In this document: positions 121-15,146 of the stretch, one piece after another | Layout of the letters: every line of letters begins with the position of its first letter | Numbering within the stretch: position 1 is the first letter of the stretch | Source of the DNA: a virus | Direction: 5' to 3' (one strand) | IMG/VR virus record: IMGVR_UViG_3300029705_000088 | Length of the DNA stretch: 23,327 nt | The notes under the pieces: generated by a model | Database searches by the model: none | What the model was told of the DNA's origin: nothing | Seen by the model: the letters and a program-made list of their open reading frames with translations, nothing else | Position numbers and translations under genes: made by a program

Positions 121-122
121 TA

Positions 123-151
123 TTGACAAAAAACCAAAAGTGTGGTATAAT
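123..151 (+). promoter_or_regulatory. Sigma70-type promoter (TTGACA, 17 bp spacer, extended TGTGGTATAAT)
   Basis: -35 ttgaca at 123-128 and tgtggtataat at 141-151. Upstream motif cttttcaaaaacc. Confidence 0.8.
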
Positions 152-197
152 ATATACAGAGAGAGGGAGAAACCCTCACAGAAAGGAAGTAAATAAA

Positions 198-404
198 ATG
201 ACTACTAACAACAGACCGCATGCCGCTTACAATCTTACTACTGGTGAAGTGCTTATGGCAAACAATGTCAGATGGCTTGAGAGCGCAATCAGAAGCACTA
301 ATATTTATAATGAAACAAATCACAAAATCAAAAGCAAGTGGGTGTTTGCGCATGGTAGAGATTACCAAAAAAAATTAATCGCAAAGATTGGTAAATGCTG
401 GTAA
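198..404 (+). CDS. Hypothetical small protein (68 aa)
   Basis: ATG at 198 sits after the promoter and a leader hairpin (gaggg agaaa ccctc, 163-177), with RBS aaggaag. The upstream part of the 3..404 ORF is translated homopolymer. Confidence 0.7.
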   Translation: MTTNNRPHAAYNLTTGEVLMANNVRWLESAIRSTNIYNETNHKIKSKWVFAHGRDYQKKLIAKIGKCW

Positions 405-428
405 TTCCAGCATTTACCATTTTTAATT
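390..428 (+). terminator. Intrinsic terminator hairpin (ggtaaatgctgg/ccagcatttacc) followed by a T-run
   Basis: A 12-bp inverted repeat overlaps the stop codon and is followed by atttttaattt. Confidence 0.65.
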
Positions 429-559
429 TATGAACAAATTGTAAAATTTCTATGAATAAAAAATTCATAAATTGTTTACAAAAAATTCATTTTTAATTTA
501 CAAATTATTTACAAAATATGCTTGATTTTGAGCCGGCCGCTCGCGTTCCAAGCGGCCGG

Positions 560-860
560 AGTTCACAAATTGTGAACAATTTGTGAATTTTTTGTAAACA
601 AATTGTGAACAAATTGTAAACTTTTTATTTCCCGAATGTGAACAAATTGTGAACAAATTGTAAATTTTTTGTTAACAATTTATGAATTGTTAACAAAAAA
701 TTTACAATTTGTTCACAATTATCTCTGTTCTCGGGCCCCAGGGCCCGAATTTGTGAACAAACTGTGAATTTCAATATTTTTTTTTAAATAAATTGTAAAT
801 AAATTGTGAACAAATTCTCCCGAATGTAAACAAATTGTAAATTTTTAAATTGTAAATTTT
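560..860. repeat. Array of more than 12 iteron-like copies of TGTGAACAAATTGT(A/G)AAC, in both orientations, with GC hairpins
   Basis: Direct and inverted copies are visible. GC hairpins lie at 531-560, 735-750 and 870-895. Confidence 0.8.
645..720. repeat. Large perfect palindrome with 26-bp arms (aattgtgaacaaattgtaaatttttt), capable of forming a cruciform
   Basis: Left arm 645-670 and right arm 695-720 are exact reverse complements. The 24-bp centre, gttaacaatttatgaattgttaac, itself contains GTTAAC palindromes. Confidence 0.85.
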
Positions 861-889
861 TTGTTAACAAACCCTCTCCCCTGCGGCCC

Positions 890-1142
890 GCCGATTGTTA
901 AAAATTTCACACACTTTAGTATGGTAAAGCGTGAAAGTGAAAAACAGTTTTTTGACGATTTTCGTGTTTGTGAAAAATTTCACAATGCCAGCCTTCCGTT
1001 TTGTACGACAAGTGTCGCGGGGCCCCGAAGTCGCGCTTTAGTATGGTAAAGTGATAAAGTGTTAAAATAAGGGGCGGCCGCGCGATTGTTAAAATTTTCA
1101 CGAAATTCCAGTTTTTGGAAAAAACAGTTTTCGCGTTTTCCC
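890..1142. repeat. Pair of about 60-bp direct repeats (gattgttaaaaatttcac ... ctttagtatggtaaagYg ... aaaaacagtttt), each preceded by a GC hairpin, plus a TGTGA-N6-TCACA site at 969-984
   Basis: Element copies lie at 893-911 and 1083-1100, at 914-944 and 1036-1062, and at 940-952 and 1121-1133. The palindrome tgtgaaaaatttcaca is at 969-984. Confidence 0.7.
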
Positions 1143-1440
1143 TACCCGGTAAATTTTGGAAATTCATCCACCATTTGGTAATGGAAGAAACTGGATGCGC
1201 TTGTTAAGAATTTAACGGTCTTTTTACCATTTTCTGGTAAATGGGAAAATTTGTAAGTGCTGGAAGAAAATGGTAAAAGCAGAAAATCGCAAAACTATAC
1301 GCGAACAAATGTTCGTTCGTCAAATTGCACAAAAATGTATAATATACATTTTTAGTCAAATTATACAAAAATGAATATTTATACATTTTTGTGCAAAACG
1401 TACAAAATACATTTTTTTTAAAGAAATTTCAAAAACCCCC

Positions 1441-1469
1441 TTGACAGAATCGCAATTGTGTGGTATAAT
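1441..1469 (+). promoter_or_regulatory. Sigma70-type promoter
   Basis: ttgaca at 1441-1446 and tgtggtataat at 1459-1469, 17 bp apart. Upstream tttcaaaaaccccc. Confidence 0.8.
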
Positions 1470-1527
1470 AGATACAGTAAAGGAAATCCGGAAGCCACAA
1501 AGAACGGAAGAAAGAGAGATTAAAAAA

Positions 1528-1689
1528 ATGACTATTGAAAGCATCACTTTTGAAAAGTATGTAGAAATTGCAAACCTGCTTGATGAATGCGTCGGCGATG
1601 TTTACTTGTACGGCATTGAAGAAATCGCAATTATGTGTGACGTACCCGTTGAAGTTGTTAAGTACGTTGACAGAGCTGAACACGAATAA
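1528..1689 (+). CDS. Hypothetical small protein (53 aa)
   Basis: ATG at 1528 after a conserved leader (ggaaatccggaagcc..aagaacggaagaaagagag). It is in frame within the 1441..1689 ORF. Confidence 0.65.
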   Translation: MTIESITFEKYVEIANLLDECVGDVYLYGIEEIAIMCDVPVEVVKYVDRAEHE

Positions 1690-1708
1690 TAAAAGGGGGA
1701 TAAAAAAG

Positions 1709-1828
1709 ATGTTTTGGTGGTTTATTTTCGCAGACGGCTACAGAACAGCAGTGAAGGGATTCAGCAAGCGCGAGCTTAAGGTGGAAGAAATGAAGCACGG
1801 CAAGCTGGTCAGAAAAATCCCCGCGTAA
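1709..1828 (+). CDS. Hypothetical small protein (39 aa, MFWWFIFADGY...)
   Basis: RBS aaaggggga, 8 nt, then ATG at 1709. A hairpin (atccccgcg taaa gcggggat) overlaps the stop. Confidence 0.5.
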   Translation: MFWWFIFADGYRTAVKGFSKRELKVEEMKHGKLVRKIPA

Positions 1829-1874
1829 AGCGGGGATTGACTCCAACAAAAAATAAAGAAAGAGGTAAAATAAA

Positions 1875-2240
1875 ATGAGCTGTGTTTACTATGCGATGAA
1901 CGAAAAAACGGTGCTTGCTTTACAAGAAAAAAAGCGCGGCACCTACGTCATTAAAATCGGCGAAACAAATAACGTTATCCGAAGAGCAAGAGAGGTATTT
2001 TACAGAGACAAAGACCTAATCATGAAAAATTGGGAGTGCGACGATAATATCGCATATCGCAGAGTAATTGAGGCTAACGCGCATTTGATTCTTGAAAACA
2101 ACTTTGATGTTGAACGTAAAGGGAATGACCATTATATAGTCAAGAACAAAGCAGAGCTTGCGAGAATTGAAAAAGCGCTTGATACACTGATTGAAAAAGC
2201 AATCGCGCAGGCGGATGCGGTTGATAGAATCCCTATGTGA
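1875..2240 (+). CDS. T5orf172/GIY-YIG-superfamily domain protein (121 aa)
   Basis: RBS aagaggtaaaataaaATG. The motif VYYAMNEK...YVIKIGETNNVIRRAREVF resembles the GIY...KIGxT..RR signature of T5orf172 (PF10544-like). It is a paralogue of 10750..11097. Confidence 0.7.
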   Translation: MSCVYYAMNEKTVLALQEKKRGTYVIKIGETNNVIRRAREVFYRDKDLIMKNWECDDNIAYRRVIEANAHLILENNFDVERKGNDHYIVKNKAELARIEKALDTLIEKAIAQADAVDRIPM

Positions 2241-2252
2241 CAGATGTAAAAT

Positions 2253-2290
2253 AAAGCGGCTGGGTGGAAAAAATATCCAGCCGCTTTGGT
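2253..2290 (+). terminator. Intrinsic terminator (aaagcggctgg ... ccagccgcttt)
   Basis: An 11-bp stem is followed by a T-rich tract. Confidence 0.7.
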
Positions 2291-2440
2291 AACAATTTGT
2301 TCATATTCTGTTCACAATTTGTTCATACATTTTTGTTCATATTTTGTTCACAATTTGTTCATAAAATTTTTTTAAAAAATTTACAATTGTGGGCGCCCGC
2401 TCGTTTCCGGGCGTTTACCACCCGAAACGAGCGGTATTTC
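2284..2440. repeat. Inverted-orientation iteron copies (ttgttcacaatttgttcata, at least 4 copies) plus a GC-rich hairpin island (2391-2440)
   Basis: The reverse complement of the 560-860 motif is repeated here. The stem ccgctcgtttc/gaaacgagcgg is visible. Confidence 0.75.
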
Positions 2441-2564
2441 TAATGGCCACCTAATTCCGCATTTTTTATGGCAAAAACTGGATAATTCGCATATGTTTCC
2501 CATTTCCTGAAACTACCAATAGGCCAGTTCACAGAAACTTCACAATCTATTTACAGAATATTCA

Positions 2565-2593
2565 TTGACATTTTTATTAAAATATGATATAAT
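2565..2593 (+). promoter_or_regulatory. Sigma70-type promoter (attgacatttttattaaaatatgatataat variant)
   Basis: ttgaca at 2565-2570 and tataat at 2588-2593, 17 bp apart. Confidence 0.8.
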
Positions 2594-2639
2594 ATATATA
2601 CAGTAAAGGAAAGCCAATAGGCGACCAAAGAAAGGACAC

Positions 2640-2816
2640 ATGGAGATGAAAACTTATGCTTGCTCTGTTTATCACAAGAAATTTGGATGGGATGAATACT
2701 TCGTTAAAGCGAGTAATAAAGGTGAAGCGAAGAAAGAATGTATGTATCGCCTTGATAACGAGACCGATTATCCTGCCAAAGAATGGGAAATCGTGGATGT
2801 GGTAGAGGTCAAGTGA
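2640..2816 (+). CDS. Hypothetical small protein (58 aa, MEMKTYACSVYHKKFGWDEY...), absent from the ORF track because it is under 60 aa
   Basis: ATG at 2640 after the promoter and RBS aaaggacacATG. The ORF runs to TGA at 2814-2816. A perfect hairpin (gtagaggtca/tgacctctac) overlaps the stop. Confidence 0.55.
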   Translation: MEMKTYACSVYHKKFGWDEYFVKASNKGEAKKECMYRLDNETDYPAKEWEIVDVVEVK

Positions 2817-2860
2817 CCTCTACCTTGCGAAAAAAAATTTAAAAAATTTCGCAAAACCTC

Positions 2861-2889
2861 TTGACAAACGACCGGAAATGTGATATAAT
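2861..2889 (+). promoter_or_regulatory. Sigma70-type promoter with upstream TTTCGCAAAACC element
   Basis: ttgaca at 2861-2866 and tgatataat at 2881-2889. Confidence 0.8.
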
Positions 2890-2938
2890 ATATATACAGA
2901 GGAACCCAAGAGGTTCCAAGAGAAAGGAAGTAAAAACT

Positions 2939-3405
2939 ATGTTACCTAAGATGATTTGCTTTGACATGGACGGCACCCTCGCAGACCTTTACAACGTGCC
3001 CAACTGGCTTGAACAGCTTCGTGCGTTTGACCCTGCCCCGTATCGGGAAGCAGAATGTATGTGGGATGAAGAGGAGCTTGCTTGCATCCTGAATACGCTG
3101 ATTGATAACGGCGTTGAAATTCGCATTATCACTTGGCTGTCAAAGGAAAGCACTCCCGAGTATGATGAAGCGGTACGCGAAGCGAAGCGAGAATGGCTTG
3201 AAGCCCTCGGCATTCCTTACACTCACTTCCACGGTGTAAAGTATGGCGCGACTAAGGCTGACAGCATCCGCAGATACCTTGAAGAGGACGAAACCGCTTG
3301 CTCTTTGATGACAATGAAAAGGTTCGCAAGGGCTGGCACATGGGCGAAGCGTTTGACCCGACCGCGATTGATATTCTTGAATTACTGTATGCGCTCTTGG
3401 ATTGA
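2939..3405 (+). CDS. HAD-superfamily 5'(3')-deoxyribonucleotidase-like phosphatase (NT5C family); the reading frame is interrupted by a -1 shift near 3283-3294
   Basis: The product begins MLPKMICFDMDGTLADL, which is HAD motif I (DxDGT). GATKAD supplies the motif III lysine. The motif IV stretch LLFDDNEKVRKGW lies in the -1 frame and ends at TGA 3403-3405. The listed frame instead runs on to 3436 as non-homologous sequence. Confidence 0.7.
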
Positions 3406-3453
3406 GCGCATACAGGTAAATTCAAAAAAGTTTTAATACAGGAAAGAAATAGC

Positions 3454-3645
3454 ATGGAAGAAAATATTCAGTTTAAACGTTTTCAAGCAATTATTGACCC
3501 AAAATCTATTGATATCCCAATTTTTAAATGTGAAGAATGTCCATTAAATGATAAATGCCATGATGAAAAACGCATAGATGATTTTGAGCATACTTGCATA
3601 GAAGCTATCTGGCATTATATTCAAACTGGTGAATTCTTGGCATAA
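3454..3645 (+). CDS. Hypothetical small Cys/His-containing protein (63 aa)
   Basis: RBS aggaaagaaatagcATG. No promoter of its own, so it is probably co-transcribed with the upstream gene. Confidence 0.6.
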   Translation: MEENIQFKRFQAIIDPKSIDIPIFKCEECPLNDKCHDEKRIDDFEHTCIEAIWHYIQTGEFLA

Positions 3646-3677
3646 AAAATTTTTTTCAAAAAATTTCGCAAAACCTC

Positions 3678-3706
3678 TTGACAAACACCGCAAAGTATGA
3701 TATAAT
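3678..3706 (+). promoter_or_regulatory. Sigma70-type promoter with TTTCGCAAAACC element
   Basis: ttgaca at 3678-3683 and tataat at 3701-3706. Confidence 0.8.
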
Positions 3707-3762
3707 ATATATACAGAGGAAATCCGGAAGCCCAAAAGAACGGAAGAAAGAGAGAAAACAAA

Positions 3763-4035
3763 ATGCCTACTGGTAGATTTAATGAAGTTGAAGAGAATGT
3801 TGTTCTGATGGAAGTCACCGCCGAAGAGCTTAAACTTATCATTGAAAGAAGAAAAAAAGAAATTACACGCGATAATTATATGGAAGAATTTAATGATTTA
3901 ATTTCTCGGGCAAGAAAAGATGGTATTTTCTTCTGCGTTCAACGTGGAAGAGTTGCTAACGGAACAAGACTGTTTGAAGAAGATGGTCCAGAATCATATA
4001 CAGATAGATTGAATAATATTCGTATCACCTATTAA
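3763..4035 (+). CDS. Hypothetical protein (90 aa)
   Basis: Conserved leader, the same as the 1528 gene, followed by ATG at 3763. Confidence 0.7.
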   Translation: MPTGRFNEVEENVVLMEVTAEELKLIIERRKKEITRDNYMEEFNDLISRARKDGIFFCVQRGRVANGTRLFEEDGPESYTDRLNNIRITY

Positions 4036-4065
4036 ATAAAAGCCGCCTTTGGGCGGTTTTTTATT
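4036..4065 (+). terminator. Intrinsic terminator (aagccgcc ttt gggcggtttttt)
   Basis: GC stem followed by a T-run. Confidence 0.75.
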
Positions 4066-4160
4066 TCAATTTCAATTTTTGTTTCCATTTTTTGGATTCA
4101 TTTTTTCATTTCAATTCATATTTTGTTTTCATTTTATTTACAAATTTTGACTTGACTTTT

Positions 4161-4196
4161 GGGCCGGCCGCCCGCGCTCCAAGCGGCCGGTTTTTG
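4161..4196. terminator. GC-rich hairpin (gggccggccgcccgcgctccaagcggccgg) plus a T-run. It is a homologue of the 531-560 hairpin and is followed by iteron copies.
   Basis: ccggccgc/gcggccgg stem. gaacaaattgtgaa copies lie at 4195-4252. Confidence 0.6.
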
Positions 4197-4308
4197 AACA
4201 AATTGTGAATTTCAATACTTTTTTGTAAGCATTTTGTAAACAAATTGTGAAGGGAAATTTTCCCAAAATGTTTGTGCAATTTGACGAAAGATTTTTTTCA
4301 AAAACCTA

Positions 4309-4337
4309 TTGACTTTTGGCTTGATATGTGGTATAAT
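4309..4337 (+). promoter_or_regulatory. Sigma70-type promoter
   Basis: ttgact at 4309-4314 and tgtggtataat ending at 4337, 17 bp apart. Confidence 0.8.
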
Positions 4338-4371
4338 ATATATACAGAAAAGAAAGAGAGGTACATCACAA

Positions 4372-4575
4372 ATGACTAACACTAAAATTTATTTTGAGGT
4401 AGAAATTGAGGGCGTAGTAACCCAATTCAATAATTTCAATGATGCCCGTGATGAGTATAACGCGCTCATGGAATGCGGTTTCTACGAAGCCACCCTTCAC
4501 AGAGTAGAAGAAGTCAATGGCGACAAATACATAGTAGTATGGAATGACAGAAGTGCTTGCTTTTTCCCCCGCTAA
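4372..4575 (+). CDS. Hypothetical small protein (67 aa)
   Basis: ATG at 4372 with RBS aaagagagg. Confidence 0.65.
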   Translation: MTNTKIYFEVEIEGVVTQFNNFNDARDEYNALMECGFYEATLHRVEEVNGDKYIVVWNDRSACFFPR

Positions 4576-4604
4576 AAATCTTTAAAAAACTTTCGCAAAA
4601 CCCC

Positions 4605-4633
4605 TTGACAAATCGCTCAAAGTATGATATAAT
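4605..4633 (+). promoter_or_regulatory. Sigma70-type promoter (canonical class-A copy aaaaccccttgacaaatcgctcaaagtatgatataat)
   Basis: ttgaca at 4605-4610 and tataat at 4628-4633. Confidence 0.85.
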
Positions 4634-4675
4634 ATATATACCCCCGATACAGGGGGTAGAAAGAGAGATAGACCA

Positions 4676-5380
4676 ATGAACACAGAAAAGATTGACCGCC
4701 GCAGACATTACATTATCGTGCTTGACACGGAAACCGCAAACACCTTCCGCGATGAAAGAGGACAGCTTGACACAAGTAGTACACTTGTGTATGACCTTGG
4801 GTGGGCGGTAACTGATAAGCATGGAAACATCTACCGCAAAAAGAGTTTTGTAAATTCTGATATTTTCTTCCATGAAGCTGAACTGATGAAGTCGGCATAC
4901 TACGCAAATAAAATCCCGCAGTATCTCGCAGACATTGAAGCGGGTAGGCGCATTGTGGCTAATACCTATCAAATGCGCTCGGCTCTGCTGAATGATATCG
5001 CAGATTTCGCAGTTGATACAATTTGCGCGCATAACGCCCGTTTTGACTACAACAGCCTAAACAGCACAGAGCGCTGGACTACAAAAAGCAAGTACCGCTA
5101 TTTTCTCCCTTATGGAATTACAATTTGGGACAGTATGAAGATGGCGCAAAGTGTAATCGGAAAGATGCCCACCTACCGCGCATTTTGTGAAGAACATGGT
5201 TATCTGACAAAAACTGGCAGACTTTCCATGACAGCGGAAAATCTTTACAGATTCATTTCCCGCAATAATGATTTTGTTGAAAATCATACAGGGCTTGAAG
5301 ATGTGGAAATTGAAGCGCAGATAATGGCGTACTGTTTCAGACAACACAAGGCAATGCAGAAAGAGTTATGGGGGAATTAA
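4676..5380 (+). CDS. DnaQ-like DEDDh 3'-5' exonuclease (234 aa)
   Basis: Exo I is IIVLDTETAN, Exo II is AHNARFDYNSL, and Exo III is HTGLEDVEIEAQ. The leader hairpin ccccc gataca ggggg lies at 4641-4656. Confidence 0.75.
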   Translation: MNTEKIDRRRHYIIVLDTETANTFRDERGQLDTSSTLVYDLGWAVTDKHGNIYRKKSFVNSDIFFHEAELMKSAYYANKIPQYLADIEAGRRIVANTYQMRSALLNDIADFAVDTICAHNARFDYNSLNSTERWTTKSKYRYFLPYGITIWDSMKMAQSVIGKMPTYRAFCEEHGYLTKTGRLSMTAENLYRFISRNNDFVENHTGLEDVEIEAQIMAYCFRQHKAMQKELWGN

Positions 5381-5429
5381 TCCCCCATGACTACCGCAAA
5401 AAAAACTTTAAGAAATTTCGCAAAACCCC

Positions 5430-5458
5430 TTGACAAAACCGCAAAAGTATGATATAAT
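5430..5458 (+). promoter_or_regulatory. Sigma70-type promoter driving the tRNA-like gene
   Basis: ttgaca at 5430-5435 and tataat at 5453-5458. Confidence 0.8.
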
Positions 5459-5498
5459 ATATATACAGAAGAGAGGAACAAATCCTCCCCGATAATAT

Positions 5499-5605
5499 GG
5501 CAGTGAGATAGAAGCGGCTCTATTTCCATAAAGATGGCTTGAGATACAACAAATGGAAACGTTCGCCATTGGAAAACGTAGGTTCAACTCCTACCACTGC
5601 CTCCA
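5499..5605 (+). tRNA. tRNA-like gene, non-canonical length (107 nt). It has a 7-bp acceptor stem, a canonical T-arm and 3' CCA, but the middle part does not fold into a standard anticodon arm.
   Basis: ggcagtg at 5499-5505 pairs with cactgcc at 5595-5601. The T-arm gtagg-ttcaact-cctac is at 5578-5594, the discriminator t is at 5602, and CCA is at 5603-5605. A D-arm-like atag aagcggct ctat is present. I could not place a 7-nt anticodon loop with U33, nor find a CUA anticodon. Confidence 0.45.
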
Positions 5606-5636
5606 AAAAATTTTTCAAAAACTTTTGCAAAACCCC

Positions 5637-5665
5637 TTGACAAATCGCTCAAAGTATGATATAAT
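5637..5665 (+). promoter_or_regulatory. Sigma70-type promoter (class-A copy)
   Basis: ttgaca at 5637-5642 and tataat at 5660-5665. Confidence 0.85.
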
Positions 5666-5749
5666 ATATATACCGAAGCAAGAGGGCACGACCTCCAATC
5701 GGTAAAATAAAAATAATGGGTAGCGACCTACGCTGAAAGGATTGATACC

Positions 5750-6139
5750 ATGGCTACTACTAACTCTACTTCCAAGAAGCTCACTAAGCGCGACCACTTC
5801 AACACCCTGCTCCAGCTCCCCGAAGTTGCCGCAAATCCCGCACTCGTTGATTTCATCAACAACGAACTTGACCTGCTGGCTCGCAAGAACAACAGCGACA
5901 ACAAGAAGCTCACTGAAAAGGACATCGCAAATCAGGGGCTTAAGGCGGCGATTCTTGAATTCGCAACCGCGAGCGGCGAACAGCACACTGTTACCGACTT
6001 CATCAAGAACGTGCCTGCGTGCGCTGGACTTTCTCCGCAGAAGATTACCGCACTGGTTCGCCAGATGGTAGAAGATGGCAAGCTTGAAAAGGTAATCGTA
6101 AAGCGCGTATCTTACTTCCGCATTCCGGAGGGGGTTTAA
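5750..6139 (+). CDS. Hypothetical protein (129 aa), cassette A gene 1, with a possible C-terminal winged helix
   Basis: An 80-nt structured leader ends ...gctgaaaggattgataccATG. Codon usage is rich in C-ending codons. It is a paralogue of 9851..10249. Confidence 0.8.
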   Translation: MATTNSTSKKLTKRDHFNTLLQLPEVAANPALVDFINNELDLLARKNNSDNKKLTEKDIANQGLKAAILEFATASGEQHTVTDFIKNVPACAGLSPQKITALVRQMVEDGKLEKVIVKRVSYFRIPEGV

Positions 6140-6170
6140 TCCCCCTCCCCCAAGAGGGGGGACGTAATCC

Positions 6171-6527
6171 ATGAGCGAACAGGAAAAAGCAATGCGGCGG
6201 CTCGGCTTTACAGATGAAGAAATCGCCGACGTAATGGACGCAGATAAGCGCATTGACAAGGGCGAAAAACTATTTGAGCAGACCGCCGAAGAAAAGAACG
6301 CAAGTAAAGAATTGCGGCGAGCACCGCGCAAAGTCGTTGACGCATACGGCAAAGCAAGCACCAAGGAACGCAAAAGCGACAACGACAAGCAAGCACTAAT
6401 CAAAGGCATTGAAATGGCAATTTTTGACAAAGTGGAAAATCTTACCATTATCAATCCCGAACGTGAAATGGAGTTTCTTTACAATGGTAGAAAATTCAAG
6501 TTGACTCTATCTGCTCCCCGAAAGTAA
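6171..6527 (+). CDS. Hypothetical protein (118 aa), cassette A gene 2
   Basis: ATG at 6171 after the stacked hairpins gaggggg/ccccctc and ccccc aagag ggggg. It is a paralogue of 10285..10692. Confidence 0.75.
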   Translation: MSEQEKAMRRLGFTDEEIADVMDADKRIDKGEKLFEQTAEEKNASKELRRAPRKVVDAYGKASTKERKSDNDKQALIKGIEMAIFDKVENLTIINPEREMEFLYNGRKFKLTLSAPRK

Positions 6528-6537
6528 ATATTTTCCA

Positions 6538-6570
6538 AAATGCATATTACAAATGTAATATGCATTTTTG
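6538..6570. promoter_or_regulatory. Perfect AT-rich palindrome (aaaatgcatattaca aa tgtaatatgcatttt), a candidate operator or terminator
   Basis: The 15-bp arms are exact reverse complements. Confidence 0.5.
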
Positions 6571-6589
6571 TTTATTTTGACGAAAATTT

Positions 6590-6790
6590 CCAGTTCACAA
6601 ATTGTTTACAAAATATACTTGATTTGTTCAAACGCGCGTCGCCGATGGTGGCGCGCGTTTTTTTTGTCAATAGGTAATGTATACAAATTTTCAGAAAATT
6701 TTTGGGCGTTTTTAGTCAATTCATACAAATCCCGCAATTATGAACATTTTGTAAACAATAAAGAAAACCTATTGACTTTTTTATTATAAT
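6590..6790. repeat. About 190-bp intergenic repeat element, copy 1 (tttacaaaatatacttgatttgttcaaac, a GC hairpin with T-run terminator at 6631-6668, then ...caaatcccgcaattatgaacattttgtaaa...)
   Basis: Close similarity to 11150..11340. The GC hairpin aaacgcgcg...cgcgcgttttttttt is visible. Confidence 0.8.
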
Positions 6791-6800
6791 ATGATATAAT
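6772..6800 (+). promoter_or_regulatory. Sigma70-type promoter
   Basis: ttgact at 6772-6777 and tgatataat ending at 6800, 17 bp apart. Confidence 0.8.
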
Positions 6801-6845
6801 ATATATACAGAAAACAAAGAGCCAACAGGCAAAGGAGATAAAACA

Positions 6846-7277
6846 ATGAAAAATATTTACGCTGTTAAGAATTACGTCCGCTTTGATGATGAATGGGAAG
6901 AAATTTTTGTGTGGGATTACAATTATGAGTATCTCACCCCCGAAGAAGCAAAAACCTTTGAAGATACTTTCCGCACGACCTGCCGCACGTTTGAGGAACT
7001 GCGCGAAGAGGTAGACAGATTCCCCGGTATCAAAGAAAATTATACCTTTTTCCGGCGCAGTCCTTACATCCGTGTGCAGGGTTCTGATTGGGATAGCTAT
7101 GGCAAATATTATGATGAAAAGCATTTCAAGAAGCCTATTAGCTTCAAGAAGGTCTGTAAAAGAGTTAATAACCTTTCCATTAATGATTTGATGAAAGTAT
7201 TAACTGCAGAAGATTTTGCAGACTGGTGGAAAGACCACGCAGGCGAAACGCAGTGCCCGTTCAAAAAGAATTCATAA
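6846..7277 (+). CDS. Hypothetical protein (143 aa)
   Basis: RBS aaaggagataaaacaATG. Confidence 0.8.
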   Translation: MKNIYAVKNYVRFDDEWEEIFVWDYNYEYLTPEEAKTFEDTFRTTCRTFEELREEVDRFPGIKENYTFFRRSPYIRVQGSDWDSYGKYYDEKHFKKPISFKKVCKRVNNLSINDLMKVLTAEDFADWWKDHAGETQCPFKKNS

Positions 7278-7296
7278 AATAAATACAAATTATACA

Positions 7297-7325
7297 TTGA
7301 CTTTCTCTCTTGGATGTGGTATAAT
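7297..7325 (+). promoter_or_regulatory. Sigma70-type promoter
   Basis: ttgact at 7297-7302 and tgtggtataat ending at 7325. Confidence 0.8.
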
Positions 7326-7367
7326 ATATATACCCTCCAAGAGAGAGGGTAGAAAGAGGTAAAACAA

Positions 7368-7604
7368 ATGAGAGTTGAGGACATGAGAAATAAGGACAAA
7401 GAGGTAACAATTAAAGACATTAAAGTCGGTGAATGCTTCATTGACTGTGATGGCGATTTAAATATGAAAATAAAAAATATTGAATCTTTTGATTATGAAT
7501 CTATTAATGCTGTAGTGCTTTTAACTGGTCAACTGTGGGCTTGTGATGAAGATAGCCCTATAACTCCAGTAAAAACGCACATTGTAATTGAATCGGAGGG
7601 ATAA
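7368..7604 (+). CDS. Hypothetical protein (78 aa)
   Basis: Leader hairpin ccctc caagaga gaggg at 7333-7349. RBS agaaagaggtaaaacaaATG. Confidence 0.7.
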   Translation: MRVEDMRNKDKEVTIKDIKVGECFIDCDGDLNMKIKNIESFDYESINAVVLLTGQLWACDEDSPITPVKTHIVIESEG

Positions 7605-7610
7605 AAAAAA

Positions 7611-8084
7611 ATGAATATTTTAATTTTTGCAATCGCTACTGTAATTAACGTATCACTTTCCACTATCCGCGCCATTACCACCATTAAAAGCGGTAAATGG
7701 CTGTCCGCTGTGATGAATGCGGTTTGTTATGGTTTCTATCCTCTGATTGTCATGCTGACCGCGCAAGGCACCGTAGGCATTTTGGTGAATATGGCAATTA
7801 CTGCCATCGCAAATTTCATCTGCGTATGGATTATTAAGTTTGTAGAGGAAAAGGCGCGTAAAGATAAACTCTGGAAGATTGAAGCATCTGTGTGTGAGCC
7901 TTACACCGAAAGCCTTTATAATGACTTAAGAGAAAATGGAATTTCTTGTAATTATATTCCCAACATTGGTAAATATACCATTTTCAACATTTACGCAGAA
8001 ACGCAAGCGCAAAGCCTTATTGTAAAAGGACTGCTTGAAGCCAACAAAGCAAAGTATTTTGTGAGCGAAACAAAAATTCTTTAA
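7611..8084 (+). CDS. Membrane protein, UPF0316/DUF2179-like (157 aa). It has N-terminal TM helices and a soluble C-terminal domain.
   Basis: RBS ggagggataaaaaaaaATG. The hydrophobic N-terminus carries a TIR motif, and the layout resembles the UPF0316 (YebE-type) family. This family assignment is recalled from memory and is not a verified similarity. Confidence 0.6.
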   Translation: MNILIFAIATVINVSLSTIRAITTIKSGKWLSAVMNAVCYGFYPLIVMLTAQGTVGILVNMAITAIANFICVWIIKFVEEKARKDKLWKIEASVCEPYTESLYNDLRENGISCNYIPNIGKYTIFNIYAETQAQSLIVKGLLEANKAKYFVSETKIL

Positions 8085-8103
8085 AAAACTTTCGCAAAAC
8101 CTA

Positions 8104-8132
8104 TTGACAAATTCAAAAAAGTGTGGTATAAT
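8104..8132 (+). promoter_or_regulatory. Sigma70-type promoter with TTTCGCAAAACC element
   Basis: ttgaca at 8104-8109 and tgtggtataat at 8122-8132. Confidence 0.8.
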
Positions 8133-8174
8133 ATATACATCCCCGATACAGGGGATAGAAAGGAATAAAACAAA

Positions 8175-8498
8175 ATGAAACTTGGTATTATTTTAGCAAA
8201 ACGTAAAATGGATGAAGAAGATACTGGACATCGCATCATTAAAATTGAAACAAACAATAATGATTTCAAACAGATTATTGATAAATCAATATATATAAAT
8301 AAACATTATAAAGAAACAGATGTTGTGACACGTAGAAAAACTTTTGATAAATTGTGTGATTTACTGGATGAAATTGTTAAACCATATTGTAAAGCAGATG
8401 AAGCAGTTATTTTTGCTTGTACAGCAGATGGTTATGCATTTATTTATGATGATGAAGATTTGGTAAATGAAACAATGAAATATATTTTTAATGAATAA
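8175..8498 (+). CDS. Hypothetical protein (107 aa)
   Basis: Leader hairpin atcccc gataca ggggat at 8139-8156. RBS aaaggaataaaacaaaATG. Confidence 0.7.
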   Translation: MKLGIILAKRKMDEEDTGHRIIKIETNNNDFKQIIDKSIYINKHYKETDVVTRRKTFDKLCDLLDEIVKPYCKADEAVIFACTADGYAFIYDDEDLVNETMKYIFNE

Positions 8499-8515
8499 AA
8501 ATTTTACTAAATCCC

Positions 8516-8544
8516 TTGACAAATAAGCAAAAGTGTGGTATAAT
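8516..8544 (+). promoter_or_regulatory. Sigma70-type promoter
   Basis: ttgaca at 8516-8521 and tgtggtataat ending at 8544. Confidence 0.8.
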
Positions 8545-8591
8545 AATAGTACCCCAATACAGGGGGCACTAAAAGAGAGAGGTAAAATAAA

Positions 8592-8849
8592 ATGACAAGA
8601 ATTGTAAAGCAAATGAAAATGGCAAAAATTTATGTTCCCGCTTGTTATGTTGATGGTGGACAAGGCTCTCGTGGCAACTGGACAAAAGAGACAATTTTTT
8701 ATACGGGTGCTTACACCAGCGAAACAGATATGCAGGAAAAATTTATTAAAGCAAAAGAAGAATGGGATAAAAAGAAAAAAGAATCGTGGGATACTTATTA
8801 TACAGAAGTAAAACTTATAGATTGGTGGGAAAATGTAGAAATTTTGTAA
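8592..8849 (+). CDS. Hypothetical protein (85 aa)
   Basis: Leader hairpin cccc aatacag ggggg. RBS agagaggtaaaataaaATG. Confidence 0.7.
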   Translation: MTRIVKQMKMAKIYVPACYVDGGQGSRGNWTKETIFYTGAYTSETDMQEKFIKAKEEWDKKKKESWDTYYTEVKLIDWWENVEIL

Positions 8850-8855
8850 AACCCC

Positions 8856-8884
8856 TTGACAAATCCGAAGAAATGTGATATAAT
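8856..8884 (+). promoter_or_regulatory. Sigma70-type promoter overlapping the end of the upstream CDS
   Basis: ttgaca at 8856-8861 and tgtgatataat ending at 8884. Confidence 0.8.
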
Positions 8885-8926
8885 AATAGTACCCCCAATA
8901 AAGGGGGGAGAAAGAGGTAAAATAAA

Positions 8927-9160
8927 ATGAAAGTTGCTGTTACACTTTATCGCACGATTGAAATGGATGTAAATGAAGAAGTTTTTGAAAGACTTCATGA
9001 AATCCATAAAGACCCTACCACTTTTGGAGAAGATGAAGATTATTCCGAAGCAAAAGAAATTATCACAAACAGACTGCTGGCACGCTGTGAACTTCATAAT
9101 GGTGAAGAAATTATCGGCGTGTATGCGGCGGAAGATGATATTCCGATTCTTGAATTTTAA
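8927..9160 (+). CDS. Hypothetical acidic small protein (77 aa)
   Basis: Leader hairpin ccccc aataaa gggggg. RBS agaaagaggtaaaataaaATG. Confidence 0.7.
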   Translation: MKVAVTLYRTIEMDVNEEVFERLHEIHKDPTTFGEDEDYSEAKEIITNRLLARCELHNGEEIIGVYAAEDDIPILEF

Positions 9161-9163
9161 TAA

Positions 9164-9200
9164 GGAGAGGGCGCAAGCCCCTCTCTTTCTTTTACTTTTG
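9164..9200 (+). terminator. Intrinsic terminator (ggagaggg cgcaag cccctctc followed by tttcttttactttt)
   Basis: GC stem followed by a T-run. Confidence 0.75.
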
Positions 9201-9472
9201 GCATTCATAATTTATTTACAAATTATTTATAAAAAACACTTGACTTTTGAGTCGCCCGCGGCCGGAGGTCACGGGCGAAATTTTGTCAAGAGATATCGTA
9301 TAAAAAAATTGTAAACATTTTATTAACAATCAAGTGAATTAGCCGTTTTCCCGTAATAAAAAATTAACAAATGAACATAGACTCGTTCACATATTATACC
9401 ATTACCAAAAATTGACAATCTGACTTGTTCTTGGATATTGAAAAAATTTTTTGAGAAATTTTGAAAAACCTC

Positions 9473-9501
9473 TTGACAAAAACGTGATTGTGTGGTATAA
9501 T
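9473..9501 (+). promoter_or_regulatory. Sigma70-type promoter with no ORF downstream (first of three tandem promoters)
   Basis: ttgaca at 9473-9478 and tgtggtataat at 9491-9501. Confidence 0.75.
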
Positions 9502-9579
9502 ATATATGTACCAAACAAAAGGATGCGCGGGGACGCCGAAAGCCACTCAAAAAAATTTGAAAAACTTTTCAAAAACCCC

Positions 9580-9608
9580 TTGACAAATCGCTCAAAGTAT
9601 GGTATAAT
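9580..9608 (+). promoter_or_regulatory. Sigma70-type promoter (class-A copy) driving an ORF-less structured transcript
   Basis: ttgaca at 9580-9585 and tataat at 9603-9608. Confidence 0.8.
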
Positions 9609-9614
9609 ATATAT

Positions 9615-9720
9615 GTCAGGGGCGAGGGTGAGTAAAACCTCGTAAAAAATCTCCTCATCAAGTGAAGTCCAAAATGCGATAAATTGACTTCAAATCTTGA
9701 TAGTATCGCAAAAAATTTTT
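9615..9720 (+). ncRNA. Candidate small non-coding RNA (about 105 nt): a 5' hairpin plus an H-type pseudoknot, ending in AAAAAATTTTT
   Basis: There is no ORF beyond a 10-codon one. The 5' hairpin is cgagg...cctcg (9623-9642). The pseudoknot has S1 at 9657-9669 paired with 9686-9701, and S2 tgcgata (9675-9681) paired with tatcgca (9704-9710), interleaved. Confidence 0.4.
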
Positions 9721-9741
9721 GAAAAACTTTTCAAAAACCCC

Positions 9742-9770
9742 TTGACAAATACCATAAAGTATGGTATAAT
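9742..9770 (+). promoter_or_regulatory. Sigma70-type promoter for cassette B
   Basis: ttgaca at 9742-9747 and tataat at 9765-9770. Confidence 0.8.
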
Positions 9771-9850
9771 ATATATACCGGGTGAGGGAAACCTACCACG
9801 GCAAACAAATTAAAAGGTTGGCAACCTAAACAGCTGAAAGGATTGATACC

Positions 9851-10249
9851 ATGGCTAACACTAATTCTACTCTCAACGCTACCGCAAAGAAGCTCACCAA
9901 GCGTGACCACTTCAACGCCCTCCTCGCTATCCCCTCTGTAGCATCTAACCCCACGCTCGTTGAATTCATTGAAAATGAGCTTGACCTACTGGCTCGTAAG
10001 AACGCTAAGCCGTCTGGCAAGCAGATGGAAAAGAAGGAAGCAAACGATGCGCTGAAGCAGGCAATGCTTGACTACCTCGCAAATGATGGCGGTCAGCACA
10101 CCGTTACTGACTTCATCAAGAATGTTCCCGAATGCGCTGGACTGTCCCAGCAGAGAATCACTGCGCTTGTCCGTCAGCTGGTAGAAGATGGCAAGATGGA
10201 AAAGGTGATTGAAAAGCGCGTTTCCTACTTCAAGCTGGCAGAGGTTTAA
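9851..10249 (+). CDS. Hypothetical protein (132 aa), cassette B gene 1, paralogue of 5750..6139
   Basis: The same structured leader ending gctgaaaggattgataccATG. About 60% identity to the cassette A protein by eye. C-ending codon bias. Confidence 0.8.
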   Translation: MANTNSTLNATAKKLTKRDHFNALLAIPSVASNPTLVEFIENELDLLARKNAKPSGKQMEKKEANDALKQAMLDYLANDGGQHTVTDFIKNVPECAGLSQQRITALVRQLVEDGKMEKVIEKRVSYFKLAEV

Positions 10250-10284
10250 TCCTCTGCCACGCCTAACCAAAAGAGGTGATGAAG

Positions 10285-10692
10285 ATGGAACTGACCCGAG
10301 CCGACAAAGCGCAAGTCAAGCGAATTCAAGAGGGCTTGCGCTGTACCGAAGAAGAAGCTCTTGAGGTTTTGTCCTATGACAAGGAAGTTGAGAAGGCTTC
10401 CGCTAATGACAGGCTGGCGTACGACCTTGACAAGGAGACAGAGAAGGAAGCGATGCGTATGGCTAACTGCCGCGACCGCAAGCCTACTGTTTACAATTTC
10501 TCCCAGCGTGAGCGCAAGGCAAATCCCACAAAGGGCGGAATAATCGCAGAATTGGCGGAGTTTTTGACAAAAAACAGTCAGTTTGCGACCGAAGATGTGG
10601 AAATTACCAACAAAGAACGGCAAATTGCGTTCAAAATTGGTGAAGATGCCTTTGAATTGACGCTTGTTCAGAAGCGAAAGCCCAAAAAGTAA
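10285..10692 (+). CDS. Hypothetical protein (about 136 aa), cassette B gene 2, paralogue of 6171..6527
   Basis: RBS aagagg. Candidate ATGs lie at 10279 and 10285; the track uses GTG at 10276. Confidence 0.7.
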   Translation: MELTRADKAQVKRIQEGLRCTEEEALEVLSYDKEVEKASANDRLAYDLDKETEKEAMRMANCRDRKPTVYNFSQRERKANPTKGGIIAELAEFLTKNSQFATEDVEITNKERQIAFKIGEDAFELTLVQKRKPKK

Positions 10693-10694
10693 AG

Positions 10695-10724
10695 AAAAGT
10701 GGGAATTTTTCCCACTTTTCACTT
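10695..10724 (+). terminator. Intrinsic terminator (aaaagtggga atttt tcccactttt)
   Basis: 10-bp stem followed by a T-run. Confidence 0.7.
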
Positions 10725-10749
10725 AAATTTTAGTCAAAAAGATGCAAAA

Positions 10750-11097
10750 ATGGCAGAAAAAGAGTTTCTTTATGTGGGTTTTTACCACGATACCGACAAA
10801 AATTTTGTTCTAAAGATTGGAACAACTAACGACCTAAAGCGCAGACAGGCAGAGCACACGCGCAATTATAGGAAAAGCCCTGAACACACAATGCCGCCAG
10901 ATGGCAAATTTACCTATTTATGGAAGCTGCCCCTTTCAAAATATAATACTCTGCGTTTTGAGGACAGAAACCGCCAAAAGTGGCAGGAAATGGGAATTGG
11001 TGAATATGTGCGGAACGACCGCTTTGTTCTCCATGAAATTCCACCACAGGTAGAAATTACCATCCGCAAAACTTATACAATCCCTCTACTGATGTAG
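10750..11097 (+). CDS. T5orf172/GIY-YIG-superfamily protein (115 aa), with no promoter of its own, inserted into copy B of the duplicated cassette
   Basis: FLYVGFYHDTDKNFVLKIGTTNDLKRRQAEH matches the GIY..YIG..R..H pattern and is paralogous to 1875..2240. The gene ends with TAG inside a terminator hairpin. Confidence 0.7.
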   Translation: MAEKEFLYVGFYHDTDKNFVLKIGTTNDLKRRQAEHTRNYRKSPEHTMPPDGKFTYLWKLPLSKYNTLRFEDRNRQKWQEMGIGEYVRNDRFVLHEIPPQVEITIRKTYTIPLLM

Positions 11098-11112
11098 AGG
11101 GATTTTCTTTTG
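11082..11112 (+). terminator. Intrinsic terminator (ccctctac tgat gtagaggg plus a T-rich tract) that contains the TAG stop
   Basis: Perfect 8-bp stem followed by attttcttttg. Confidence 0.65.
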
Positions 11113-11149
11113 TGCATAATGACGAAAATGCTGTGTTCATAATTTATTT

Positions 11150-11340
11150 ACAAAATATACTTGATTTGTTCAAACGCCCGCGACCGGAGGCCACGGGCGT
11201 TATTTTGTCAAGTGGTAATCTATACAAATTTTCAGAAATTTTTTTAACATTTTTGTACAAACCGCACAAATCCCGCAATTATGAACATTTTGTAAATAAA
11301 CAAGAATATCTATTGACATTTTTATAAAAATATGATATAA
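11150..11340. repeat. About 190-bp intergenic repeat element, copy 2 (homologue of 6590..6790)
   Basis: The same tttacaaaatatacttgatttgttcaaacgc, a GC hairpin (gcccgcgaccggaggccacgggcg), and ...caaatcccgcaattatgaacattttgtaaa. Confidence 0.8.
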
Positions 11341-11341
11341 T
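11313..11341 (+). promoter_or_regulatory. Sigma70-type promoter
   Basis: ttgaca at 11313-11318 and tgatataat ending at 11341. Confidence 0.8.
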
Positions 11342-11381
11342 ATATATACAGTAAAGAACCAACAGAAAGAGAGCAAATAAA

Positions 11382-11579
11382 ATGGATATGTGGATGAGCG
11401 ACCTTTTAGAAGCTACCGCAAGAGTAAAAGTACATAAAGGAAAAAATTTCTGTATCAAGTCTGCCCTTCCTGCGGTTGATGGCATTGTATTTGAAACTAC
11501 TTACTTCACTTACATTAAATGGTATCGCGCAGATGGACGCATTGAAGAACATTCTAAAGACGCATGGAGGAATAAATAA
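11382..11579 (+). CDS. Hypothetical protein (65 aa)
   Basis: RBS agagagcaaataaaATG. Confidence 0.65.
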   Translation: MDMWMSDLLEATARVKVHKGKNFCIKSALPAVDGIVFETTYFTYIKWYRADGRIEEHSKDAWRNK

Positions 11580-11580
11580 A

Positions 11581-11808
11581 ATGAATACACTTGTAATCAG
11601 CGAAAAGTTGATTGAATACTTTGAGCAGGAAGTAAAAGACGCAGAAAGAGCGCTTGAACGCAATCTTTACACGCCCCTTGAAATCGTAGATAACGCAAAA
11701 CAGCGAATGCTTGGAGCGACTACTCTGTGCCAGTATCTTGGTATTGAATATTTGTTCCTTGAAGCAAACTATGAAGCATACACAAAAAAACTTGAAAAAC
11801 TTTTATAA
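11581..11808 (+). CDS. Hypothetical protein (75 aa)
   Basis: ATG at 11581, in frame within the 11476..11808 ORF. RBS aggaataaataaaATG, with the stop and start adjacent. Confidence 0.65.
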   Translation: MNTLVISEKLIEYFEQEVKDAERALERNLYTPLEIVDNAKQRMLGATTLCQYLGIEYLFLEANYEAYTKKLEKLL

Positions 11809-11814
11809 AACCCC

Positions 11815-11843
11815 TTGACAAATCGCGCAAAGTATGGTATAAT
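11815..11843 (+). promoter_or_regulatory. Sigma70-type promoter (class-A copy)
   Basis: ttgaca at 11815-11820 and tataat at 11838-11843. Confidence 0.85.
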
Positions 11844-11887
11844 AATAGTACCCCCCAGAGAGGGGGGGAGAAAGAGAGTAAAATAAA

Positions 11888-12295: not shown

Positions 12296-12319
12296 TCGCC
12301 CTTCATGGAGGTAAAGAAA

Positions 12320-13210: not shown

Positions 13211-13213
13211 AAT

Positions 13214-13242: not shown

Positions 13243-13274
13243 ATATATACAAAATAAAAAAAGGAGATAAAATT

Positions 13275-13721: not shown

Positions 13722-13727
13722 TATTTT

Positions 13728-15145: not shown

Positions 15146-15146
15146 T

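Follow-up and report, generated by a model that had tools for sequence, protein, structure and literature searches.

In the window analysed here, a stretch of 23,327 nt from IMG/VR record IMGVR_UViG_3300029705_000088, an uncultivated gut phage whose host is probably a member of the Clostridia carries an array of nearly identical promoters. Our preferred reading, which we consider likely, is that the array consists of standardised strong cassettes that are transcribed by the host RNA polymerase (RNAP) and carry early genes, the promoters doubling as recombination junctions. The same phage is present in many metagenome contigs at 99.9–100% identity, and the phage sequence read amounts to about 45 kb, out of at least 91 kb in the whole genome. 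One of its contigs, L010 (part of a 91-kb contig), is 99.99% identical to the window phage and extends to the left of window position 1. Proteins identical to those of this phage occur on contigs of up to 186.5 kb. The first ~80 bases of the window are an assembly end in a poly-A run; this run, at window ~80, ends several contigs, but L010 and L011 read through it. No near-identical DNA to window positions 1–12000 was found among INPHARED phages.

A search with the pattern TTGACA-N14-TGNTATAAT, allowing at most one mismatch, gave 22 matches in the whole window, compared with a mean of 0.00 when the sequence was shuffled 100 times with its dinucleotides preserved. They are co-oriented on the plus strand in 21 cases and on the minus strand in one; 18 are perfect and four have one mismatch, and their -35, spacer (17 ± 1 bp) and -10 agree with those of sigma-70/sigma-A promoters. 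All 19 promoters that the initial annotation had placed between 123 and 11843 were recovered, every one on the plus strand, and the 17-bp spacing and TGnTATAAT ascribed to them hold throughout, with 16 perfect sites and TTGACT at the other three (4309, 6772 and 7297). An independent consensus scan of positions 1–17000 returned 17 sites at 12/12 with TG. The TG of the extended -10 is present in all copies, and T at -17 followed by R (TGTG or TATG) is found in the window as well as in 382 promoters of relatives (54 from six other phages and 328 from 37 loci), as in the TRTG '-16' motif that has reportedly been defined for Gram-positive sigma-A promoters. The start proposed as usual at +1, ATATATAC, is exact in 11 of the 19 copies, and a shorter ATATAC in 13. 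The promoters lie 26–78 nt upstream of strong ribosome-binding sites (RBSs). Taken by their sequence, the copies are supported as near-consensus sigma-70/sigma-A promoters with an extended -10.

Alignment of the copies separates three variants. Class A, with 15 copies in the window, opens with the upstream block aAAAAnTTT(c/t)(g)nAAAAcc(c/t)(c/a), continues with TTGACAAAt and a mixed spacer, and closes with aaaGT(A/G)TG(A/G)TATAAT. Class B (2565, 6772, 11313, 13214 and 16085) has no upstream block and an AT-only spacer (ctaTTGACATTTTTATnAAAATATGATATAAT), and always comes after a long intergenic block. Class C joins TTGATT to the AT spacer of class B and continues rightward ahead of longer genes. 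The promoter at 7297 is without the upstream block, yet has a mixed spacer and a 5' stem-loop. The initial annotation had confined the array to 123–11843; the copies there stand, but the array overruns both ends. To the right further copies were found at 13214 (+), 16085 (+) and 14754 (-), with TTGATT variants at 18462, 20163 and 21873. Directly to the left L010 has nine more, eight strict class A copies and one TTGACT variant, and the array begins there after a long intergenic block. The class A array measures ~14.7 kb with some 28 promoters, or 17.4 kb with the class B units 13214 and 16085, at a density of about one promoter per 0.6 kb.

A shared block near -45 had also been described. In the loose form A5-6 N T3-4 N2-3 AAAA CC it is present at 15 of the 19 promoters, being missing at 2565, 6772, 7297 and 11313, but the literal word TTTCGCAAAACC occurs in five only. 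Scored against NNAAAWWTWTTTTNNNAAANNN (-59 to -38), which is said to be the upstream promoter (UP) element consensus of E. coli, class A blocks agree on average at 10.1 of 14 specified positions, compared with 5.5 ± 2.1 for the window background, 6.3 for class B and 5.0 for class C. Across the 54 and 328 promoters of relatives the A/T/A tracts, TTGACAAA, T at -17 and TGnTATAAT are kept, the spacers carry almost no information, and the CGC and CCCC positions are not kept, with CTA, GGG or GTA there in related phages. Since the tract pattern is kept while the spacers vary, it is under selection. Two functions had been suggested for the block, a UP element and a binding site for an activator or anti-sigma factor. 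The consensus score and the kept tracts speak for the first; the second, a sequence-specific site, is not supported, and no specific word is kept across relatives. That the class A block acts as a UP element is thus supported at the level of sequence, and the alpha C-terminal domains of RNAP would bind its phased A/T tracts at about -57 to -40.

The literal identity of CGC, CCCC and spacers within the genome is better put down to copying among cassettes than to additional contacts with protein, since relatives differ at these positions. A stronger form of this idea, which we find rather unlikely, takes everything conserved beyond the core (the block near -45, CCCC and entire spacers, for instance AATCGCTCAAAGTA) to be unselected. 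Recent duplication and gene conversion would have kept uniform a repeat that spreads by recombination (concerted evolution), and function would be limited to the positions in contact with RNAP. It fits well with the spacer AATCG(C/G)TCAAAGTA common to 4605, 5637, 9580 and 11815, with the 95.7% identity of the 69-bp stretches 4574–4642 and 5606–5674, with the replacement of CGC and CCCC in related phages and with breakpoints that fall within cassettes. It accounts, however, for literal identity in one genome and not for the block itself, whose A/T/A-tract pattern survives in 382 promoters with randomised spacers.

Common features extend into the transcripts. A stem-loop, for example ACCCCCGAUACAGGGGGU, starts within the first 1–6 nt of the predicted transcript in 10 of 18 protein-coding leaders (-8 to -18 kcal/mol, z = -2.1 to -6.8); eight of these ten leaders belong to class A units, and none of the five class B leaders has one. 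Stem-loops at the 5' end stabilise RNA in B. subtilis, and in most class A units they may shield the transcript from 5'-end-dependent RNases. Among the 27 array genes, 24 show pairing with the anti-Shine–Dalgarno at -8 kcal/mol or lower, compared with 7.5% of random 20-mers. Units followed by a long intergenic block end in intrinsic terminators. Ahead of many class A promoters there is a stop codon and no terminator, so that read-through from upstream units is likely. The claim of one or two genes per promoter did not hold: nine promoters drive one gene, four drive two, three drive three, and three (5430, 9473 and 9580) have no open reading frame (ORF). The complete cassette would consist of a UP-like block, the -35 (TTGACAAA), a 17-bp spacer, TRTG with the extended -10, an AT-rich start, in most class A units the 5' stem-loop and, to complete it, a strong Shine–Dalgarno (SD) sequence. 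It would be read by the unmodified housekeeping RNAP of the host (sigma-A/sigma-70 type), and its output would be either a short non-coding RNA or up to three small genes.

As to relatives, an exact search for the UP block plus -35 gave nine IMG/VR contigs of 23–154 kb, whose only DNA similarity to the window lies in the promoters, of which they have up to 15 per 13 kb. The exonuclease encoded in the array has 6548 metagenome homologues at E ≤ 1e-10, and a search for its relatives in IMG/VR by peptide patterns gave one distant match only. Contexts of 16–21 kb around exonuclease genes contain 23 promoters in L023 (88% identity), the relative used for synteny, 22 in L024 (70%) and 21 in L021 (68%). 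The 37 loci mentioned above come from bins of metagenome-assembled genomes, mostly Clostridia, Eubacteriales and Acutalibacteraceae from yak, goat, buffalo, rabbit and rumen; their exonucleases are 38–67% identical and they have 328 strict matches in 307 kb. Against phages, the 106-nt promoter cassette gave two short matches only. One of these, MT835476.1, was rejected as a relative on its whole sequence, which has 47.5% GC and a single promoter match but neither tRNAs nor protein homologues.

Synteny breakpoints between the window and L023 fall within ±75 nt of a promoter start in 20 of 24 cases, and promoter cassettes cover only 23% of the aligned span (binomial P = 7.5e-10). Several gene cassettes, the tRNA-like unit, the 9580 unit and a comparable one in the left extension differ in presence, and in each case the segment concerned is bounded exactly by two promoter copies. 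Promoters thus bound exchangeable gene cassettes, as the repeats known as PeSLs (promoter-early stem-loops) do in T4-type phages. These nearly identical promoters would also serve as junctions for gain, loss and replacement of cassettes between related phages.

The array is also set apart by its genetic code. In-frame TAG is absent from all 27 of its genes, which end in TAA (22), TGA (four) or TAG (one), and beyond ~14.6 kb five ORFs carry 1–7 in-frame TAGs. In one of the latter a YunG-like Pfam domain (E = 3.6e-11) spans residues 18–78; the first Met after TAG is residue 54, inside the domain, which therefore needs read-through. ENA gene calls likewise read through TAG. Judged from the sequence, the phage recodes TAG while the array uses the standard code; no suppressor tRNA (anticodon CUA) was seen in the ~45 kb read, the genome being at least 91 kb long. 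As it uses the standard code, the array would be expressible on DNA entry, before any phage suppressor tRNA or phage factor, and for this reason its genes most likely belong to the early class. GC content at third codon positions ranges from 0.11 to 0.65 in array genes, with a mean of 0.415 (198–13721) versus 0.293 to the right (16146–23327); this higher and very heterogeneous GC content suggests a mosaic origin or different codon adaptation. A minus-strand island at 13900–16050 (GC 22–31%, GC skew down to -0.66) holds the only minus-strand promoter copy and an HTH_11-type gene with seven in-frame TAGs.

One could argue that there is no distinct early class at all, that the three variants are all constitutive sigma-A promoters, active from start to end of infection, and that the genes are ordinary accessory or 'moron'-type genes. 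The same -10 and a similar -35 do occur throughout the 23-kb window and beyond, and the small-gene regions of Enterococcus phage H1 have both promoter kinds. We nevertheless regard this as unlikely: class A is systematically set apart from the other two by a UP block, a 5' hairpin and a spacer of higher GC, the array is without in-frame TAG while neighbouring units have it, and such units are early in studied Gram-positive phages (PMC12282133, PMC11598898).

The products of the array were described as proteins of 39–157 aa, mostly without homologues, several of them acidic or Cys-rich. Size is right for most of them, except for proteins of 165 and 234 aa. Composition agrees, with pI 4.1–4.5 in 7 of 27, six Cys in a protein of 51 aa and four in one of 63 aa. 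Most indeed lack a Pfam or PHROG family, but about 10 of 27 belong to a clade core that includes the HAD-like protein, the exonuclease, the winged-helix pair, the membrane protein and T5orf172, a domain found twice among array proteins. In a survey of 45 related loci the HAD-like, exonuclease and winged-helix genes are present in 21–43; of the 27 array genes, 17 occur in no or one relative and no more than about 10 at two or more related loci. Conserved core genes with putative DNA-related roles are mixed with lineage-specific orphans. The 234-aa DnaQ-like exonuclease matches phrog_20187 (E = 2.9e-45) and is 40% identical to the 'exodeoxyribonuclease' of Enterococcus phage H1. The HAD-like phosphatase assignment (2939–3436) is weak. 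Compared with its intact L023 orthologue, this gene is frameshifted near 3296, the C-terminal 35 residues lying in another frame (3298–3405), and the frameshifted 165-aa ORF is called in six covering contigs (L010–L013, L015 and L016, 99.9–100% identical), while L014 starts downstream. For the most acidic protein (135 aa, pI 4.1), modelled at moderate confidence (mean pLDDT 79.6), no structural neighbour was found (best E = 1.0), and sequence searches of PDB with four array proteins gave nothing significant. By analogy with known phages, the orphan genes are candidates for host-takeover or anti-defence functions.

A two-gene module, a winged-helix gene and its partner, is duplicated at 5637–6527 and 9742–10692. 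The winged-helix copies are 67% identical in amino acids, both modules have a conserved structured leader of 74–78 nt, and the module is kept in about half of related loci. The predicted model of its first member (pLDDT 82.7) has the fold of a winged-helix DNA-binding protein, with structural neighbours of MarR, ArsR and Mnd1 type. The motif AAWTTGTRAAYA occurs 37 times against 5.6 expected, in both orientations and, except for two or three single copies, inside the long intergenic blocks, with 11-bp phasing at 565–690. Its clusters may form an array of operators or iterons, to which the winged-helix proteins would perhaps bind. The class A upstream block itself could instead be an operator for a sequence-specific protein, an activator or repressor of phage or host origin, such as these winged-helix proteins, two paralogues of which are encoded in the array, and TTTCGCAAA and GAAAAACTTTTC are near-palindromic. 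This appears quite improbable to us, as relatives keep only tract composition and phasing and no specific word, and the intergenic AAWTTGTRAAYA is the better candidate for an operator.

Three units of the array yield no protein. The first contains a tRNA-like RNA that reaches 29.4 bits with the Rfam tRNA model (gathering score 29, E = 2.6e-4 in a 361-nt search) and whose minimum free energy fold has the same arms. A 41-nt insert occupies the place of nine central model positions (the anticodon loop), leaving no readable anticodon. ARAGORN was negative on this element, also in intron mode, and the insert is without CUA, UUA or UCA; a suppressor or intron-bearing tRNA was rejected on these grounds. 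An exact search of IMG/VR for its 3' half found nothing, and no ribozyme or other Rfam family matched the element at E ≤ 10. Theta (HDV-like) ribozymes occur beside phage tRNAs (PMC10879173); none was seen downstream of the tRNA-like RNA, which the UP block of the next promoter directly adjoins. Its cassette is missing in L023, and the tRNA-Tyr of L043 has nearly the same T arm and acceptor ends. Single tRNA genes of ordinary type are embedded in the arrays of relatives (Lys-UUU three times, Tyr-GUA, Asn-GUU and Ile-GAU). A strict promoter lies 16–187 nt upstream of the tRNA in L051, L021 and L043 (Tyr) and about 500 nt upstream in L043 (Lys) and L041; none was found upstream of the L062 tRNA. 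In L051, tRNA-Ile is bounded by promoters 16 and 19 nt off. The tRNA-like RNA sits in the same kind of slot as these tRNAs but cannot decode normally, and may be a decayed tRNA or a functional mimic.

The other two units have no ORF. The one behind 9473 is kept in L023, L002, L007 and L009 and the one behind 9580 is missing in L023; folding z-scores are weak for both (9502–9560 and 9609–9720). They may be small RNAs or empty cassettes left by promoter recombination. A single non-coding RNA family was rejected, since in relatives their common start, GTCAAG(A)GGGG, is found ahead of ordinary genes as well. At 20572–20648 of L017, ~8 kb to the right of the window and amid closely spaced class C promoters, there is a 77-nt tRNA with anticodon TAG, which would read CUN (Leu) but is without the long variable arm of bacterial tRNA-Leu.

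In the phage group of CKA15 and phage K, G1 gp67 blocks UP-dependent promoters, and tRNA-Lys, tRNA-Tyr and tRNA-Asn are classic targets of anticodon nucleases. A gp67-like protein would switch off class A while B and C continue; no gp67-like anti-sigma factor was found in the available ~45 kb. A more far-reaching proposal would turn part of the array into an anti-defence arsenal of RNA and protein cassettes, coupled to a two-layer timing switch. The tRNA-like RNA could then be an early decoy or inhibitor of tRNA-targeting defence instead of a decoder, and the contrast between UP-dependent class A in standard code and UP-less classes B and C before TAG genes would form a combined transcription and translation switch. 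We consider this proposal very doubtful. Finally, reading of the promoters by a phage-encoded sigma factor or RNAP, raised only because the copies are so uniform, found no support and is highly improbable, as the motif is the textbook sigma-70/sigma-A consensus including the TRTG -16 motif and no RNAP or sigma gene was seen in ~45 kb of the phage.

It should be noted that several points weigh against host-read early cassettes as the explanation. Early timing and host takeover are both plausible, but analogy alone carries them. Closely similar promoter cores (classes B and C) are found over another 20 kb or more, also ahead of longer genes and genes with in-frame TAG, so the core motif alone defines no temporal class. 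The UP scores were obtained with a consensus defined in E. coli. The enrichment of breakpoints at promoters is partly expected, as alignments may reach into any conserved element. And no array protein matches a known host-shut-off or anti-defence family in Pfam, PHROG or PDB.

The array is an unusually regular new case of the strong-promoter early arrays known from Bacillus, Staphylococcus, Listeria and T4-type phages. Its likeness to early and host-takeover modules, noticed already in the initial annotation, is borne out as an analogy by the parallel organisation in three of these systems (PMC6873191, PMC12282133, PMC11598898). The host-takeover genes of SPO1 are small and early, with strong promoters and RBSs (PMC6873191), and lie in the terminal redundancy. 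The SPO1 module resembles the array in its ~12 kb, its ~25 small and mostly orphan genes, its many short operons, each with a very strong sigma-A-type promoter and a strong RBS, and its Gram-positive host. Homology to gp37–60 was not detected here with Pfam or PHROGs, and the window array adds conserved DNA-metabolism genes, RNA-only units and TAG recoding elsewhere in the genome. Among Herelleviridae, Listeria phage CKA15 has sigma-A-like early promoters, some of them with a UP element rich in A and T (PMC12282133), and Staphylococcus phage K has early terminal-repeat units with sigma-A-type promoters (PMC11598898). These early long-terminal-repeat units (CKA15/P100-like and phage K) share with the window sigma-A-like promoters in several classes and small genes of unknown function, but the window consensus is far more uniform and its copies far denser.

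In T4-type phages, PeSLs are repeated early promoters, strong and sigma-70-like, on either side of orphan genes within hyperplastic regions (Arbiol et al. 2010, PMC2839356; PMC4122927). There too, ends of indels and replacements between close relatives fall in the repeats; in the window, unlike in PeSLs, the stem-loop is a 5' leader hairpin downstream of the start instead of a terminator beside the promoter, and the host is Gram-positive. The leader hairpins of the window resemble terminators when read on the opposite strand. Hairpins around the -35 are found in L021 and in Enterococcus phage H1, the closest cultured phage. H1 has TTGACA-17-TGnTATAAT promoters and a TTGATT/AT-spacer promoter like class C, but its promoters are less uniform and have a terminator hairpin embedded around the -35, and most of its small genes are unrelated. 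Enterococcus phages H1, EF1 and VRE9 (OP534061.1 and others) share the order from HAD-like gene to exonuclease and a run of ~23 small plus-strand genes. EF1, a relative of H1, does not recode TAG (PMC10607447). TAG recoding in gut phages is known from the phAss-1 group (PMC10607447) and the recoding literature (PMC10879173). The phAss-1 group resembles our phage in in-frame TAG in a subset of genes, predicted Clostridia hosts and an exonuclease 28.6% identical, but promoter arrays are not described for it (PMC10607447, PMC10879173).

These results provide a regulatory grammar for a large uncultivated clade, whose related loci in 37 bins come mostly from Clostridia of herbivore guts. The promoter classes can be used to mark transcription units, to set candidate early genes apart and to show where the standard-code part ends. 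The class A cassette, with its UP block, consensus promoter, 5' hairpin and strong SD, could serve as a strong expression module for Firmicutes, and the promoter-bounded orphan cassettes form a compact candidate list for host-takeover or anti-defence activity. The PeSL idea of promoter repeats as junctions for gene shuffling is extended from T4-type coliphages to Gram-positive gut phages.

Table 1. Promoters, transcription units and other features of the window, with array tRNAs of relatives
Feature	Coordinates	Strand	Genes, products and terminators
Class A promoter, UP-like block ~24 nt upstream	123–151	+	198–404 (68 aa); terminator 389–419
Class A promoter	1441–1469	+	1528–1689 (53 aa), 1709–1828 (39 aa), 1875–2240 (121 aa, T5orf172)
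Class B promoter, AT-only spacer, after long intergenic block	2565–2593	+	2640–2816 (58 aa)
Class A promoter	2861–2889	+	2939–3436 (165 aa, HAD-like phosphatase), 3454–3645 (63 aa, 4 Cys)
Class A promoter	3678–3706	+	3763–4035 (90 aa); terminator 4038–4061
Class A promoter, -35 TTGACT	4309–4337	+	4372–4575 (67 aa)
Class A promoter, 5' stem-loop at +1	4605–4633	+	4676–5380 (234 aa, DnaQ-like exonuclease)
Class A promoter, no ORF	5430–5458	+	tRNA-like RNA 5499–5605
tRNA-like RNA	5499–5605	+	7-bp acceptor stem, D arm, T arm (GTTCRANY), encoded 3' CCA
Class A promoter, 78-nt structured leader	5637–5665	+	5750–6139 (129 aa, winged-helix), 6171–6527 (118 aa)
Class B promoter, -35 TTGACT	6772–6800	+	6846–7277 (143 aa)
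Promoter without UP block, TTGACT, 5' stem-loop	7297–7325	+	7368–7604 (78 aa), 7611–8084 (157 aa, membrane protein)
Class A promoter, 5' stem-loop	8104–8132	+	8175–8498 (107 aa)
Class A promoter, 5' stem-loop	8516–8544	+	8592–8849 (85 aa)
Class A promoter, 5' stem-loop; UP block overlaps stop of previous gene	8856–8884	+	8927–9160 (77 aa); terminator 9162–9188
Class A promoter	9473–9501	+	ORF-less unit of ~50 nt (9508–9560)
Class A promoter	9580–9608	+	ORF-less unit of ~110 nt (9615–9720)
Class A promoter, 74-nt leader	9742–9770	+	9851–10249 (132 aa, winged-helix paralogue), 10285–10692 (135 aa), 10750–11097 (115 aa, T5orf172)
Terminators of the 9742 unit	10694–10720, 11079–11104	+	
Class B promoter	11313–11341	+	11382–11579 (65 aa), 11581–11808 (75 aa)
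Class A promoter, 5' stem-loop	11815–11843	+	11888–12295 (135 aa, pI 4.1), 12320–12475 (51 aa, 6 Cys and acidic tail), 12462–12731 (89 aa); terminator 12714–12741
Class B promoter	13214–13242	+	13275–13721 (148 aa); terminator 13728–13748
Sole minus-strand copy (TTGATA ... TGCTATAAT), within low-GC minus-strand island	14754–14782	-	
Class B promoter	16085–16113	+	Operon including the in-frame-TAG genes on this strand
Class C promoter (TTGATT, AT-only spacer, TGATATAAT)	18462–18490	+	More copies at 20163–20191 and 21873–21901 and rightward in L017
ORFs with in-frame TAG	16574–17041, 17034–17375, 17606–17881	+	
ORFs with in-frame TAG	15147–15611, 14649–14930	-	
Seven long intergenic blocks	420–1440 (longest), 2241–2564, 4062–4308, 6528–6771, 9189–9472, 11105–11312, 12742–13213		Separate transcription units
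AAWTTGTRAAYA motif zones	420–870, 2309–2356, 4135–4242, 6592–6757, 9213–9317, 11134–11298, 12767–12859		
Array tRNAs of relatives	L021 9539–9614; L043 2481–2568, 4907–4980; L041 8869–8941; L051 3349–3424; L062 242–314		

Near the promoter array of a related IMG/VR contig we found a HEARO RNA (RF02033, 128 bits; L006 6341–6561), which indicates an IS605/OMEGA-type element there. The AT-rich intergenic blocks of the window contain GC-rich hairpins flanked by CTTGA...TCAAG (520–565, 4150–4200, 6616–6675, 9237–9295 and 11158–11220), some of which are followed by a T-run. Equivalent hairpins in L021 lie directly 3' of consensus promoters (11671, 15196 and 16511) and would give tiny hairpin RNAs. 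Inside the first long intergenic block, CGAACAAATGTTCG at 1303–1316 is a perfect Gram-positive LexA (Cheo) box, CGAAC-N4-GTTCG.

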